Assembly: GCA_937949615.1 (NCBI GenBank)
Contig: CALEDQ010000018.1
Span: 76,161 to 140,160, forward strand
Origin: an uncultured bacterium
GTDB taxonomy: Bacteria; Muiribacteriota; Ozemobacteria; Ozemobacterales; Ozemobacteraceae
DNA: 64,000 bases
Direction of reading: 5' to 3'
In this document: piece by piece, positions 15,233 to 18,519 of the stretch
Position numbering within the stretch: position 1 is the stretch's first letter
Layout of the letters: each line of letters starts with the position of its first letter
Translations under genes and position numbers: made by a program
The notes under the pieces: generated by a model
Told to the model about the DNA's origin: nothing
Databases searched by the model: none
Seen by the model: the letters and a program-made list of their open reading frames with translations, nothing else

Positions 15233-15814
15233 ATGAAACGCAATTTCTCAAAAGTTCTCTGTCTGGTATTGCTCTGCTCTTTTGTTTTTTCTTCACTGCC
15301 GCAGCTTTTTGCCGGCTACTACAACCAGAACGATCTCGTCAACGCCATTTATTCAGATCTCAACAGTGCCTGCAACATAGTTGCCAGCGGCCGGGCCTAC
15401 ACTGAAATACAGAATGCCAGACCATATCTGAAGCATGCTCAGAGACTTATGAAAAAACAGGGAGTGGCACACTGCTTTGATCACCGTCTTGACCGCGTCA
15501 TCGACAACGCCAAAATGGAAATCCTCTGGAACAACCGCCATGAAGCGCTGCAGCGCATCAACCTGGCAATGCGCCTGGTTGAGAACTGCAATGTCAACAC
15601 CTGTTCACAAAACAATAGCTACCACAACGGTTATCACAACGGGCGCTCAGCCGGTAGAACCGCAGCCGGCGCCGTAATTGCCGCCCCGGTCGCAGTCGGG
15701 CTCGGCGCTCTGTTTGTAAACATCTTCAGAAATTTTAACTGGGGGCAGGTAAGCGGCACTCCGACCCGCGTCAGAATGCCGAACATACCCACTTCCGTAA
15801 TTCCTATGCGCTGA
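15233..15814 (+). CDS. Hypothetical secreted or membrane-anchored protein
   Basis: N-terminal signal peptide; C-terminal hydrophobic stretch AAGAVIAAPVAVGLGALFV. Confidence 0.5.
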   Translation: MKRNFSKVLCLVLLCSFVFSSLPQLFAGYYNQNDLVNAIYSDLNSACNIVASGRAYTEIQNARPYLKHAQRLMKKQGVAHCFDHRLDRVIDNAKMEILWNNRHEALQRINLAMRLVENCNVNTCSQNNSYHNGYHNGRSAGRTAAGAVIAAPVAVGLGALFVNIFRNFNWGQVSGTPTRVRMPNIPTSVIPMR

Positions 15815-18149
15815 GGCTGCCAGCCGACCAGGCCTGCAGCTTGCGCCATCCCTTCTCGACAATTGCCGACCAGAGATCTTTCTCGGGTTGGCAATTGTTT
15901 TCAAGGTAGGTTTTAACCAGTATCGACATTGCAAACTTCTCACGATCGGCCAATGCAAGGCTGGCCGGAGCCATTGCCAGCTGCGCCGCAAAGTCGGTTT
16001 CGCTGGCACCGATAAGAGCAAGAAGCTTTTCAGAGCGCTTAAATAAGCCATCTGAGCCGGCAAAGACAAGAATTTCAACAATACAATCTTCTTTACCGGC
16101 TGGGGCCGCCAGAACATAGGGCAGCTCGATCGCAGGCTCTTCAATAGAACCGATACCCGAAGGAATCTCACGCTTGCTCAGCTCAGAATAGCATTCATCG
16201 ATATCCTCAGAAACATTATAGAGAATTTTAGAAACCGGAGCGGCAGCACGGACAGCACCCGACTTACTGAAAAGATTAAGACATTTTGCAAAAATACCGC
16301 TGCCAGTAGACACGGCACTCATAAAGTCGCGACCTGCCGGAACCATTACCGGAATTCGCCGCAATTCAACCCGACCATCGTTCTTTTCGCTGGCGGTGCG
16401 TTCTTCCACACCAACAAAGCTGGTTTTTGAGCAGATAATTCCGTATTCTTTCGAAATCTCGATCATTTCTGAATCGGCATTTTTTGCCTTTTTGCGCTTC
16501 TGATGGCTCCCTGACCCGGCTTTTTCTTCGCCATTCTCAAGCATTTCGATGCGTTTCTGAGCCCACCAGAGAGCAGGAACGCTGCTGGCTGAAAGACTCA
16601 GAGCTTCGGCGGTAAAGGTCAGTTTCTTTGCCCCGCACATCGCCGACAATGTTACTTTCAGGCCGGCAGGCAATGGTTTACCAGATTCTGTTCTTGCGGC
16701 AAAGCGAATCGCTTCACCAGAAAACAGTCTGCCGAAAACCGAAGGTACGACTTCCAGCCCGCTGCACCCCCAGTCGGCTTCAATCTCTGAAAGGATCGGT
16801 GCCGCCAACCGCCTGAACTGGCGCAAAACCTTCAGCTCGATGCGTTCGCCCGGAAAAATAAATTCGGCGGCGCCACCGCTGCGATCGGCAACCCCGCGCA
16901 CCAGTGATTCGCTGACGCCATTGCCGATACCAAATGAAAACACCCGACAACGCCCCCGGCTGCTGACAGCAAAATCAATGACTTCTTTTTCGTTGCCAAC
17001 CTCACCGTCGGTAAACAGCAGCAGACTGGCAAACTCGGTCTGCAACCCCTGAACCGCCGCCTGCATGGCCGGCAGAATCTCGGTACCGCCCATATCAGCC
17101 CCGATGCCGGAAATGAGACGGGTAGCCTCTGCAAGCGTCTGATCACACAAAACCTGCGGTTTCTTGAAAAGACGTCTGAAGTTGCTGCCAAAACAGACAA
17201 TCTGAAAATAATCGCCCTCATTCAGAGACCTGACACAAAGTTGCAGAGCATTAACAGCCTCTTTTATCGAATCACCCTGCATCGAACCCGAGCAGTCGAC
17301 AACAAAAACGACTTCTTTGGGGGCACTCGCTTCTTCGGTCTCAAGCTCGGGAAAAAGCTCAACCAGCAGATGCTCACGACCATTGAAAACACAATGTGTG
17401 ATACCGGGCTGAATTTTTTCGACAAGCGAAAAGGTGACCACAATATCTTTATCCGGCATTACCGAAGCCTGAGAAAGATGAACATCGGCTTCGTGCTGAC
17501 CAAATTCCACTCTGATCGGGTGGCTGGGCGATTCCACCGTGCGCAGCGCTGAATTCTGCATTATCTTCAGATTAAAACTGAAACCATACGGAACCCGGGC
17601 GGCATAGTCAGGGGTGATTCTCTCCCATTCTGAGATTTCGGCAGCACTCGCAGCCGGGAAATATCTGGGCACAATTACCACGGGAAAAGAAACTCTTGCC
17701 CCGTCGGCCTGTGCTTCGAGCAGTTGAAACATGCCGAGCTGAATTTCGACCTGCTGACCTGGCAGAAGATTGCCGAGGCTCATGACAAAAAGATCTGGGC
17801 GTTCCTGGTCGAGCAGAAAGGCACCATCGCCCTCACTTATCGCTTCATCATACTTTTCGAAAGCTTTTTCGCGCTCTTCAGCAACCGCATTAATGACGCG
17901 ATCACCGGTAAGTATTCTGAGAGAGCTCAGAGTAGCCCCGGCAGGCAACGGGAAGGAGAACACCGCTTCGATCGCTTTTTTCTCGTTATTGGTGAAGCGC
18001 TGAGTTACCTGCCAGTTTACTGAAAGGTTGTTCACCAGACCTTTTACGGCGACCGCCTGCAGCGGAACAAGTCTGTCATTAGTTTTATCGTGCAGCGAAC
18101 AATAAACCTTACTCATCGGAAACCTCTCCTTGTGTTGAATTTGTGCCAA
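15804..18149 (-). CDS. VIT (vault protein inter-alpha-trypsin) + von Willebrand factor A domain protein with ~350-aa C-terminal extension
   Basis: N-terminal VIT-like region (VYCSLHDKTNDRLVPLQAVAVKG...); vWA MIDAS motif VFVVDCSGSM; possible true start MSKVY at 18116. Confidence 0.8.
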   Translation of the reverse strand: MAQIQHKERFPMSKVYCSLHDKTNDRLVPLQAVAVKGLVNNLSVNWQVTQRFTNNEKKAIEAVFSFPLPAGATLSSLRILTGDRVINAVAEEREKAFEKYDEAISEGDGAFLLDQERPDLFVMSLGNLLPGQQVEIQLGMFQLLEAQADGARVSFPVVIVPRYFPAASAAEISEWERITPDYAARVPYGFSFNLKIMQNSALRTVESPSHPIRVEFGQHEADVHLSQASVMPDKDIVVTFSLVEKIQPGITHCVFNGREHLLVELFPELETEEASAPKEVVFVVDCSGSMQGDSIKEAVNALQLCVRSLNEGDYFQIVCFGSNFRRLFKKPQVLCDQTLAEATRLISGIGADMGGTEILPAMQAAVQGLQTEFASLLLFTDGEVGNEKEVIDFAVSSRGRCRVFSFGIGNGVSESLVRGVADRSGGAAEFIFPGERIELKVLRQFRRLAAPILSEIEADWGCSGLEVVPSVFGRLFSGEAIRFAARTESGKPLPAGLKVTLSAMCGAKKLTFTAEALSLSASSVPALWWAQKRIEMLENGEEKAGSGSHQKRKKAKNADSEMIEISKEYGIICSKTSFVGVEERTASEKNDGRVELRRIPVMVPAGRDFMSAVSTGSGIFAKCLNLFSKSGAVRAAAPVSKILYNVSEDIDECYSELSKREIPSGIGSIEEPAIELPYVLAAPAGKEDCIVEILVFAGSDGLFKRSEKLLALIGASETDFAAQLAMAPASLALADREKFAMSILVKTYLENNCQPEKDLWSAIVEKGWRKLQAWSAGSLSA

Positions 18150-18519
18150 ATAACCGGGAAATGAACTTCTGCAGTTTTCTCACTCTGGCCGGAGTTACCG
18201 GATAAATACCACCCTGTATGTTCAATTCAATACCCGGATTGACCTCGATGCGCACCCAGGTGGTCGGCAATGGGTAAACCGGTGTTTCAGGCGAATTCTG
18301 ATCACGCAACTGCTCAGCTACTTTTTCGAGGCTTAGATTGTTCTCTTTGAGAGTTTTTATGCGCAGCAGATCGCGCAGATGCTCTTCAGTGTAATAATGG
18401 CCGCGACCAGCCCCCAGCGGCGGCGGCAGCAGACCATTCTGAATATAGAATCGGATGGTTCGGCGGCTGACGCCAGTTAACTCGGCGAGCTGCCCGATAT
18501 TTATCTTTTTTTCTTCCAT
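18109..18519 (-). CDS. MerR-family transcriptional regulator
   Basis: N-terminal HTH IGQLAELTGVSRRTIRFYIQNGLLPPP; overlaps start of VIT-vWA gene (operon). Confidence 0.8.
   Translation of the reverse strand: MEEKKINIGQLAELTGVSRRTIRFYIQNGLLPPPLGAGRGHYYTEEHLRDLLRIKTLKENNLSLEKVAEQLRDQNSPETPVYPLPTTWVRIEVNPGIELNIQGGIYPVTPARVRKLQKFISRLFGTNSTQGEVSDE

Follow-up and report, generated by a model that had tools for sequence, protein, structure and literature searches.

In the 64-kb window (the whole stretch of DNA that was analysed), a gene for a VIT-vWA protein lies 12.6 kb from a gene for an MVP homolog, which raises the question of whether the two are partners, as the first-pass annotation had proposed from their proximity, or whether the VIT-vWA protein belongs with another gene. 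The open reading frame at 15804..18149(-) was confirmed, and translation probably begins at the ATG at 18116, which is also the choice of gene callers and is preceded by AAGGAGAGG. The gene (15804..18116(-); 770 aa plus stop) thus encodes a VWA5A/PARP4-like product with a VIT domain (aa 30-138; 17703..18029(-); Pfam PF08487, E 2.5e-28) followed by a vWA domain (aa 279-430; 16827..17282(-); Pfam VWA_3, E 2.3e-23, and VWA, E 6.7e-12), in agreement with the domain order first annotated. The MIDAS motif DCSGS (aa 274-278; 17283..17297(-)) is completed by T345 and D370, and the site is intact: D274, S276, S278, T345 and D370 were invariant when 43 orthologs were compared. A C-terminal extension of ~350 aa had also been described. 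The ~340 aa that follow the vWA domain indeed gave no match in a Pfam search of the protein, but in an AF2 model (pLDDT 81.7, pTM 0.81; pLDDT ~90 over residues 17-598) they fall into several parts. The first (aa 443-598; 16323..16790(-)), judged from the secondary structure of the model at pLDDT ~90, is predicted to complete an ITIH/VWA5A-type fold with a beta-sandwich, a helical bundle and returning strands, named Hyb-1b, 3x helix and VITpt2 after PMC10539598. The second (aa 599-672; 16101..16322(-); pLDDT <50) is a predicted disordered linker, and the third (aa 673-767; 15816..16100(-)) is a predicted C-terminal helical domain (CTD) of ~95 aa with the motif (L)Q..DGsF ... aT.L ... W....K...WL. 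The CTD resembles the CTD of VWA5A, the N-terminal half of PARP4 MINT and alpha/alpha-toroid hairpins, and Pfam scans of the CTD alone returned only scattered single-member matches with E 0.009 or weaker. In an exhaustive HMMER search with the CTD profile, the matches of 300-550 aa were truncated VIT-vWA proteins, and the 31 matches of 94-219 aa from an earlier profile search via a word index are probably mostly gene fragments.

More than 1000 homologs of the VIT-vWA protein were found in a protein search, and sequence and structure searches, the AF2 model and the published description of the family (PMC10539598) together place it as a member of the known intracellular VWA5A/Vwa1-like family. 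This family of VIT-vWFA-CTD proteins includes human VWA5A/BCSC-1, Dictyostelium Vwa1 and the bacterial 'clade B1' (PMC10539598), and its features are all present here, namely VIT then vWA, an interwoven core of the ITIH1 type, a linker and a CTD of the ~100-aa class. The F-box/WD40 protein that is the eukaryotic partner in Dictyostelium has no counterpart at this locus. Among proteins of solved structure, the vault enzyme PARP4 is closest, with the best sequence match in the PDB (phmmer, E 1.3e-34 over 570 residues), and Foldseek returned ITIH1 (6fpz, E 3e-32, ~606 columns aligned) and a T. brucei VWFA protein (9e5c, E 5e-25). The AF2 model and PARP4 (PMC12280208) share the order of VIT-vWA, long flexible linker and terminal helical domain, but none of the ADP-ribosyltransferase, BRCT and WGR domains of PARP4 was found by Pfam in the bacterial protein, whose N-terminus begins at VIT. 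The VIT-vWA core fold and the MIDAS site are likewise common to ITIH1-4, which differ in being secreted, in lacking a CTD and in having their own C-terminus cleaved for hyaluronan linkage. Alignment to TIGR03788, the secreted marine proteobacterial sortase target, covers the core (aa 22-600, E 6.7e-90), but the score of 302 bits is below the NCBIfam cutoff of 551.65, and the present protein differs in having a CTD, in being coupled to a MerR-type gene and in lacking a signal peptide or sorting signal. Its N-terminus, MSKVYCSLHDKTNDRLVPLQ, contains no hydrophobic stretch when read by eye and by a rough hydropathy check, and the same check revealed no membrane anchor or signal peptide in the protein; identity with a secreted sortase target was rejected on the TIGR03788 score and the missing N-terminal hydrophobic segment. 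Judged from its sequence, the protein is most probably cytoplasmic. A rough hydropathy check of distant relatives that lack a MerR gene showed that these often carry an N-terminal hydrophobic segment.

Directly upstream lies a MerR-type regulator gene (18109..18519(-); 136 aa; Pfam MerR_1, E 1.3e-19), which had been annotated as cotranscribed with a 40-bp overlap. The identity of the regulator stands, and the overlap has to be corrected: since the VIT-vWA start is the ATG at 18116, the two genes share 8 bp, ATGAGTAA, as a stop/start overlap. The Shine-Dalgarno sequence of the VIT-vWA gene (AAGGAGAGG; 18123..18131(-)) is located within the 3' end of the MerR gene, and two orthologous loci have a 4-bp gene overlap (L007 and L008), an arrangement from which the two genes appear to be translationally coupled. 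The MerR_1 HTH is an N-terminal winged HTH (aa 7-72), and the C-terminal segment of the MerR partners carries the motif W.R.(h).PG.E(L)H and then a helix; the motif is conserved in 35 partners.

The pairing itself is widespread. In 46 loci from more than 10 phyla, a MerR-like open reading frame lies directly upstream of the VIT-vWA gene and shares its strand. From the organism names of the scanned species genomes, these loci belong to Riflebacteria, Myxococcota, Acidobacteriota, Thermodesulfobacteriota, Dehalococcoidia/Chloroflexi, Verrucomicrobia, Planctomycetota, Caldithrix, Firmicutes, Gammaproteobacteria and Cyanobacteria-related lineages. Among 18 loci in which the CTD was detected, the MerR gene was present in every one where upstream DNA was available. 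The pair was also found on 12 of 20 viral-classified contigs with a VIT-vWA gene (IMG/VR). When the neighbourhoods were compared, no third conserved gene was found beside the two, and the other neighbours all change. The conserved partner of the VIT-vWA protein is the small upstream MerR-type regulator. Literature searches for a described MerR and VIT-vWA system returned nothing relevant, and the bacterial protein differs from VWA5A and Vwa1 in its operon, which it shares with a dedicated MerR-type regulator and which has a conserved palindrome of operator-like form.

Upstream of the MerR gene, a sigma-70-like promoter, TTGACA-17-TATATT (18526..18554(-)), matches the consensus at 11 of 12 positions. 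Its -10 hexamer ends 6 nt upstream of the MerR ATG, so that the transcript would have little or no leader, and a distance of 6-7 nt between the -10 hexamer and the ATG was also seen in orthologous loci of several phyla. Comparison of orthologous upstream regions revealed an operator-like palindrome, GACAggTGTC (TTGACAGGTGTC; 18543..18554(-)), which overlaps the -35 hexamer here and lies within the spacer in other phyla; the exact site occurs only once in the 64-kb window. An inverted-repeat search upstream of the MerR gene found none, since the arms of these palindromes are only 4-6 nt long. Of the 46 loci, 20 have GACA-N2-8-TGTC or ACAG-N3-8-CTGT ahead of the MerR gene, compared to 0.7 +/- 0.8 (maximum 3) in random windows from the same loci, and the remaining loci have imperfect palindromes, as judged by eye. 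A second, imperfect palindrome, GACAGTAAGTGTT (18558..18570(-)), was read from the sequence directly upstream of the -35 hexamer, and orthologs have GACATAAACTGTC, GACAGCTTGTGTC or ACAGTAACTGT in its place. The candidate MerR-binding region is GACAGGTGTC/GACAGTAAGTGTT.

With moderate confidence, we favour the reading that the two genes form a self-contained, autoregulated MerR and VIT-vWA-CTD module of which MVP is not a conserved partner. The MerR-type DNA-binding protein would be made from a leaderless-type transcript, and the VIT-vWA-CTD protein would be translated from the same mRNA through coupling. The regulator would bind the palindrome and control its own operon, probably by repression rather than by the DNA-untwisting activation of classical MerR proteins, since the promoter spacer has the optimal length of 17 bp. 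The large protein may serve as a scaffold or sensor that binds proteins in a metal-ion (MIDAS) dependent manner, and its CTD may either fold back on the vWA domain, by analogy with the autoinhibition proposed for Dictyostelium Vwa1, or dock on a partner. The conserved, family-specific C-terminal segment of the MerR protein could be the part that the large protein contacts in order to feed back on transcription. Bacterial VWA5A/PARP4-like proteins of this predicted cytoplasmic type are accompanied by a MerR-type partner dedicated to them, by a conserved promoter and by an operator-like site. Little is understood about their relatives in eukaryotes, VWA5A and the non-catalytic part of PARP4, and the operon offers a simple, genetically tractable setting in which to ask what the VIT-vWA-CTD architecture senses or binds.

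An alternative that we consider unlikely is that the upstream gene encodes an ordinary MerR protein that senses a small molecule or metal and is co-transcribed with an unrelated structural or adhesive vWA protein as one of its targets. The protein does have the canonical N-terminal MerR_1 HTH, and, as in the MerR family, its palindromic site lies within or overlaps the promoter; it also shows weak likeness to CadR, CueR and ZntR over the HTH. The NCBIfam scores against characterised equivalogs (CueR, CadR, ZntR, SoxR, HspR and others) were all far below the cutoffs, the best being 45.7 against a cutoff of 151 for CadR-PbrR; CueR gave 39.3 against 147. In addition, its C-terminal half has no match to known effector domains and contains no cysteines, so that the metal-binding cysteines of the family are missing; on this and on the NCBIfam scores, a metal-sensing MerR was rejected. 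The HTH is followed by a variable linker and a small conserved motif, not by a long coiled-coil and effector pocket, and the over-long spacer of 19-20 bp on which activation by DNA distortion depends is absent from this promoter. With a spacer of 17 bp and without the long MerR dimerisation helix, classical MerR behaviour is not to be assumed. Moreover, the pair is kept across phyla with its start/stop overlap, which speaks for two partners dedicated to each other and against a regulator with an incidental target.

A role as a conflict or defence sensor, in which the VIT-vWA protein would recognise an invader protein via its MIDAS, a response would be triggered by the MerR protein and the module would travel on mobile elements, appears quite improbable. 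One Riflebacteria locus adjoins an OLD-like ATPase/TOPRIM gene and a type I restriction-modification system, and the neighbourhoods are highly variable, but no defence neighbourhood recurred across the compared loci. The 12 MerR-coupled relatives on viral-classified contigs would be in keeping with mobility, but IMG/VR contigs 100-400 kb long may represent cellular DNA that was misclassified. PADLOC returned no match for the large protein and the MerR protein resembled mad1 in the HTH only, while Pfam and NCBIfam revealed no nuclease, NADase, pore or other effector domain in either gene product.

The MVP gene (30761..33307(-)) encodes a genuine MVP homolog, as had been annotated, with Pfam matches to MVP_shoulder (E 5.6e-30) and Vault_3 and with phmmer matches (E 1e-17) to human and rat MVP that span the shoulder and the cap helix. 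The linkage on which the proposed vault association was based did not recur. MVP was absent within 10 kb of all 80 VIT-vWA loci in species genomes and from all 20 viral VIT-vWA loci, and, of 80 MVP loci on contigs classified as viral and 4 cellular MVP loci, none had the VIT-vWA gene, its MerR partner or the CTD nearby, a sample in which cellular MVP neighbourhoods are thinly covered. At the level of gene neighbourhoods, this counts against the proposal by the measure that the first-pass annotation itself had named, a VIT-vWA distribution independent of MVP. In relatives at ~90% identity, each gene block is kept and the junction between the VIT-vWA and MVP blocks is absent. The two genes lie close together in the species lineage of the window only, and it is recent rearrangement, not a conserved partnership, that has placed the MVP gene 12.6 kb away; being limited to this lineage, their closeness should not be taken as evidence for a PARP4-like partner of bacterial MVP, and the vault lead from this locus is weak. 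The promoter of the MVP gene lacks a MerR operator-like site, and the nearest candidate, a 1-mismatch TTGACAAATGGC ~130 nt upstream, has a broken half-site; overall, 5 operator-like sites were found where 3.8 were expected, which is within chance. A TolB-like beta-propeller, which had been linked to the WD40 propellers of TEP1, could not be upheld at 23915..24868, where there was no Pfam match and TolB TIGR02800 scored 22.8 bits against a cutoff of 343, and a WD40/TEP1-like propeller was rejected on the same results.

That the protein is a vault accessory or cargo, its CTD acting as the bacterial counterpart of MINT and docking it inside a particle of the MVP homolog encoded at 30761..33241(-), is very improbable given the missing linkage, block junction and operator-like site, although PARP4 is the best PDB match and shares its layout. 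The CTD profile did match PARP4 residues 1574-1642, within MINT (1562-1724), with E 0.0043 (0.44 with a narrower profile), but the match is limited to the first half of MINT, which has 163 aa compared to ~95 aa in the CTD, and Foldseek did not return MINT. The MVP-contact residues of PARP4, S1614 and K1618, are not conserved and map to a loop that varies among the bacterial proteins, the N-terminal repeats of the bacterial MVP (the MINT site in humans) were not alignable with eukaryotic MVP by phmmer, and the literature describes PARP4 as a component of vertebrate vaults (PMC12280208). The broader proposal, that the bacterial VWA5A-like CTD is an ancestral MINT that tethers VIT-vWA proteins inside a vault-like particle in MVP-encoding bacteria, such as this Riflebacterium, is in our judgement equally doubtful; if true, the MVP-MINT partnership would predate eukaryotes and bacteria could be a simple model for vault loading. 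Nevertheless, this organism encodes MVP, and the CTD of its VIT-vWA protein resembles the MVP-binding domain of PARP4 to a measurable degree, which makes binding between the two proteins a worthwhile question. At least three Riflebacteria genomes contain both genes, and a functional link in trans between the VIT-vWA protein and MVP may therefore exist: they are present in the genome of this window, in the DCG57 assembly and in the Riflebacteria MAG GCA_015232575.1, where they lie on separate contigs of 558 and 305 kb.

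In the window, which derives from a Riflebacteria-type MAG, the VIT-vWA gene was found as an ORF at 15804..18149(-), for which the ATG at 18116 is the preferred start; in the DNA this codon lies nine bases after AAGGAGAGG, and it was also chosen by the gene callers. The MerR-type gene (18109..18519, -) lies directly upstream, and its end overlaps the VIT-vWA start by 8 bp (ATGAGTAA), compared with 4 bp at the orthologous loci L007 and L008. The first-pass annotation had described the two ORFs with their domains and an overlap of 40 bp; from the ATG at 18116 the longer overlap does not hold, while Pfam confirmed the MerR_1 HTH (E 1.3e-19) in the smaller protein and, in the large protein, a VIT domain (aa 30-138, E 2.5e-28) and a VWA_3 domain (aa 279-430, E 2.3e-23). 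A 193-aa ORF on the opposite strand (15233..15814, +) converges on the VIT-vWA gene, the 3' ends overlapping by 11 bp; it has a signal-peptide-like N-terminus, a hydrophobic C-terminal segment and no family match, and is kept in close relatives only (89% identity in locus L013).

A MerR-like ORF was present directly upstream of VIT-vWA, on the same strand, in 46 loci, as well as in 12 of the 20 VIT-vWA loci classified as viral. The paired loci came from Riflebacteria, Myxococcota, Acidobacteriota, Thermodesulfobacteriota, Chloroflexi, Verrucomicrobia, Planctomycetota, Caldithrix, Firmicutes, Gammaproteobacteria and cyanobacteria-related lineages, and clustering of all neighbouring ORFs yielded no third conserved gene beside the pair. 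Orthologs of the VIT-vWA protein are also present in Sandaracinus amylolyticus and Gloeomargaritales VI4D9. The C-terminal helical domain (CTD) of the large protein was detectable in 18 loci of the genome scan, all of them MerR-coupled wherever upstream DNA was present. Distant VIT-vWA relatives that lack the MerR gene frequently have an N-terminal hydrophobic segment, by a rough measure. Their loci (L047-L066 and similar, from Planctomycetota, Phycisphaerae and others) have recurrent neighbours of their own: two ORF clusters recur in 18 loci apiece, one of them immediately upstream and the other maybe sigma-factor-like, which points to a different conserved module in this MerR-less subfamily. 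At one Riflebacteria locus (L175, 12408..22418; GCA_015232575.1, JADFZL010000006.1), the genes after the MerR-VIT-vWA pair encode DUF932, an OLD-like AAA/TOPRIM protein and a full type I restriction-modification system; none of the other loci showed such a defence-island-like setting.

Upstream of the MerR gene in the window we found a promoter of the form TTGACA-17-TATATT, matching the consensus at 11 of 12 positions. Only six bases separate the end of the -10 hexamer from the MerR ATG, no Shine-Dalgarno sequence was found upstream of this ATG, and the recurrence of a 6-7 nt spacing in MerR loci of other phyla suggests that the transcript may be leaderless, with its start at 18519. Short palindromes (GACA-N2-8-TGTC or ACAG-N3-8-CTGT), covering the -35 hexamer or placed between the two hexamers, were present in 20 of 46 upstream regions, compared with 0.7 +/- 0.8 (maximum 3) in random windows of the same loci, and several further upstream regions contain imperfect palindromes as judged by eye. 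In the window, the candidate operator-like sites of the MerR promoter are GACAGGTGTC and GACAGTAAGTGTT, within 18520-18600. A single exact copy of TTGACAGGTGTC is present in the 64 kb, and nothing comparable to it was found at the MVP promoter.

Across 43 orthologs, the MIDAS residues of the large protein (D274, S276, S278, T345 and D370) do not vary. Its N-terminus carries no hydrophobic segment, from which a cytoplasmic location would be expected. The AlphaFold2 model (pLDDT 81.7, pTM 0.81) consists of a folded region (17-598), a disordered stretch (599-672) and a helical region (673-767), and Foldseek matched it to ITIH1 (E 3e-32, about 606 columns) and, over the full length, to a VWFA protein of the T. 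brucei flagellar doublet (E 5e-25). Its layout of VIT, vWA inside a hybrid domain, helical bundle, returning strand, disordered linker and CTD of about 100 aa is exactly that of the VWA5A/Dictyostelium Vwa1 family (PMC10539598), and thus the large protein belongs to this known family. The family is intracellular, is reported to have bacterial members and to share the lineage from which the PARP4 clade arose, and its CTD has been proposed to autoinhibit the vWA domain (PMC10539598). While this family and its bacterial members are already known, our literature searches found no description of a dedicated MerR partner, of the conserved promoter with its operator-like site, or of a quantified similarity between the CTD and MINT, the MVP-interacting domain of PARP4.

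The conserved pair, translational coupling, promoter geometry, palindromes, intact MIDAS and domain layout form the basis on which we favor, with some confidence, the reading of MerR and VIT-vWA as an autoregulated two-gene module. The MerR protein would bind the palindrome, and repression appears likelier than activation because the 17-bp spacer is optimal. The large protein may act as a sensor or scaffold that binds proteins in a MIDAS-dependent manner, and its CTD would alternate between docking on itself and docking on a partner. The MerR partners have in common an HTH, a variable linker and then a motif W.R..h.PG.ELH followed by a helix; this C-terminal part (aa 75-136 in the window's MerR protein) differs from the coiled-coil and effector pocket of the usual MerR and could be where the large protein makes contact to feed back on transcription. 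That the MerR is a conventional ligand sensor, with VIT-vWA as an incidental target, is an unlikely alternative reading of the pair, and a defence-type sensor is a still less probable one. The conserved operon gives a workable starting point for studying a protein architecture that is still poorly understood.

The presence of an MVP homolog 12.6 kb from the VIT-vWA gene (30761..33241, -, within an 848-aa ORF at 30761..33307) was borne out by Pfam matches to MVP_shoulder (E 5.6e-30) and Vault_3. Its phmmer match to human and rat MVP (E 1e-17) was restricted to the shoulder and cap helix (residues 462-754), with no alignment between the bacterial and eukaryotic N-terminal repeats. Homologs are about 826 aa long, consistent with the start at 33241. 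The ORF at 23915..24868, previously taken for a TolB-like propeller, was ruled out as evidence, having no Pfam match and a TolB score of 22.8 bits where the cutoff is 343. Ten genes on both strands, including a Cache-PAS hybrid histidine kinase, an SH3_3 protein, DUF5610, a methyltransferase, DUF819, an NlpC/P60 peptidase and an enolase-superfamily epimerase, lie between the two loci, and a common transcript is impossible.

The proximity of the two genes had been put forward as a possible vault association, and as a conserved neighbourhood it failed in every sample. MVP was found by HMM search at none of 80 VIT-vWA loci (one genome per species, 10-kb flanks) and at none of the 20 viral-classified ones; conversely, VIT-vWA, the MerR partner and the CTD were all absent from 80 IMG/VR MVP loci (1.53 Mb in total). 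In the four cellular MVP contexts sampled (Riflebacteria at 91%, 80% and 65% identity, and one Planctomycetota), VIT/vWA genes were absent within 10 kb, as was MVP in Riflebacteria relatives with 50-53% identity, where the MerR and VIT-vWA pair was the sole thing retained. The relative with the 91%-identical MVP retains the order CorA-MVP-epimerase-NlpC/P60-DUF819...DUF5610, followed by a Na/H exchanger in place of SH3/kinase/MerR/VIT-vWA, and the relative with a 90%-identical VIT-vWA retains kinase-MerR-VIT-vWA but lacks every MVP-side gene past the kinase; the junction of the two blocks is thus confined to the species of the window. In MAG GCA_015232575.1, MVP and the MerR-VIT-vWA pair lie on separate contigs (558 kb and 305 kb), and in the DCG57 assembly the locus tags of the two genes, DCG57_14040 and DCG57_15700, differ by 1,660, or about 330 genes if NCBI's customary increment of five is assumed.

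The bacterial MVP gene seems to stand alone, with neighbours that change from locus to locus. In the Riflebacteria relative L010 (1923..15232) it has B12-binding radical SAM genes on both sides and a PAD (peptidylarginine deiminase-like) gene, a setting wholly unlike that in the window. The protein is unusually conserved, with 62-65% identity among Riflebacteria, Desulfobacterales, Bacteroidia/Microscillaceae, Planctomycetota and CSSED10 and a mean column identity of 61% in the MVP alignment A2 (34 sequences), and relatives at 41-55% identity turned up on 127 IMG/VR contigs, many of them 100-500 kb long. Homologs of MVP from bacteria and viruses have been published before (10.1101/872010, PMC3762200, 10.1101/2023.11.10.566534). 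The DUF819, SH3b-NlpC/P60 peptidase and enolase-superfamily (MR_MLE) genes (27018..29564, +, and 25843..27000, +) also adjoin MVP in the 91%-identical relative; we suspect a putative role in peptidoglycan-peptide recycling, unrelated to the VIT-vWA finding.

In favour of the vault idea, the best solved relative of the large protein by sequence is human PARP4 (residues 613-1186, E 1.3e-34; ITIH4, E 1e-16), and the CTD profile alone matched a single PDB sequence, PARP4 1573-1641 (E 0.44), inside MINT (1562-1724), which docks PARP4 onto MVP repeats 3-5 (PMC12280208). A broader profile, built with the matches of an exhaustive search, improved the PARP4 match to E 0.0043 and gave lanosterol synthase a comparable value (E 0.0027) through a Q..DG.W-type motif, through which squalene-hopene-cyclase domain chains also matched non-significantly (E 0.35-1.7). 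By these profile matches, the CTD probably shares ancestry with the first half of MINT, and both are built from alpha/alpha-toroid-like hairpins. However, the CTD is present in 3,848 cluster representatives, including arrays fused to protein kinase or C2/ricin domains, and also in VWA5A, in Vwa1 and in a flagellar protein; the MVP-contacting residues of MINT (S1614 and K1618) align to a bacterial loop variable in length and sequence; and phmmer could not align the N-terminal repeats of the bacterial MVP with eukaryotic MVP, so that the likeness does not imply that the CTD docks on vaults. Vault docking, unsupported by gene context yet cheap to test, is very improbable. The tandem arrays, an architecture absent from the paper in which the CTD was defined, have 4-18 copies in long proteins (P0275-P0290), with an N-terminal protein kinase domain in P0278 and ricin-B and three C2 domains in P0290; given these fusions, the proteins are probably eukaryotic.
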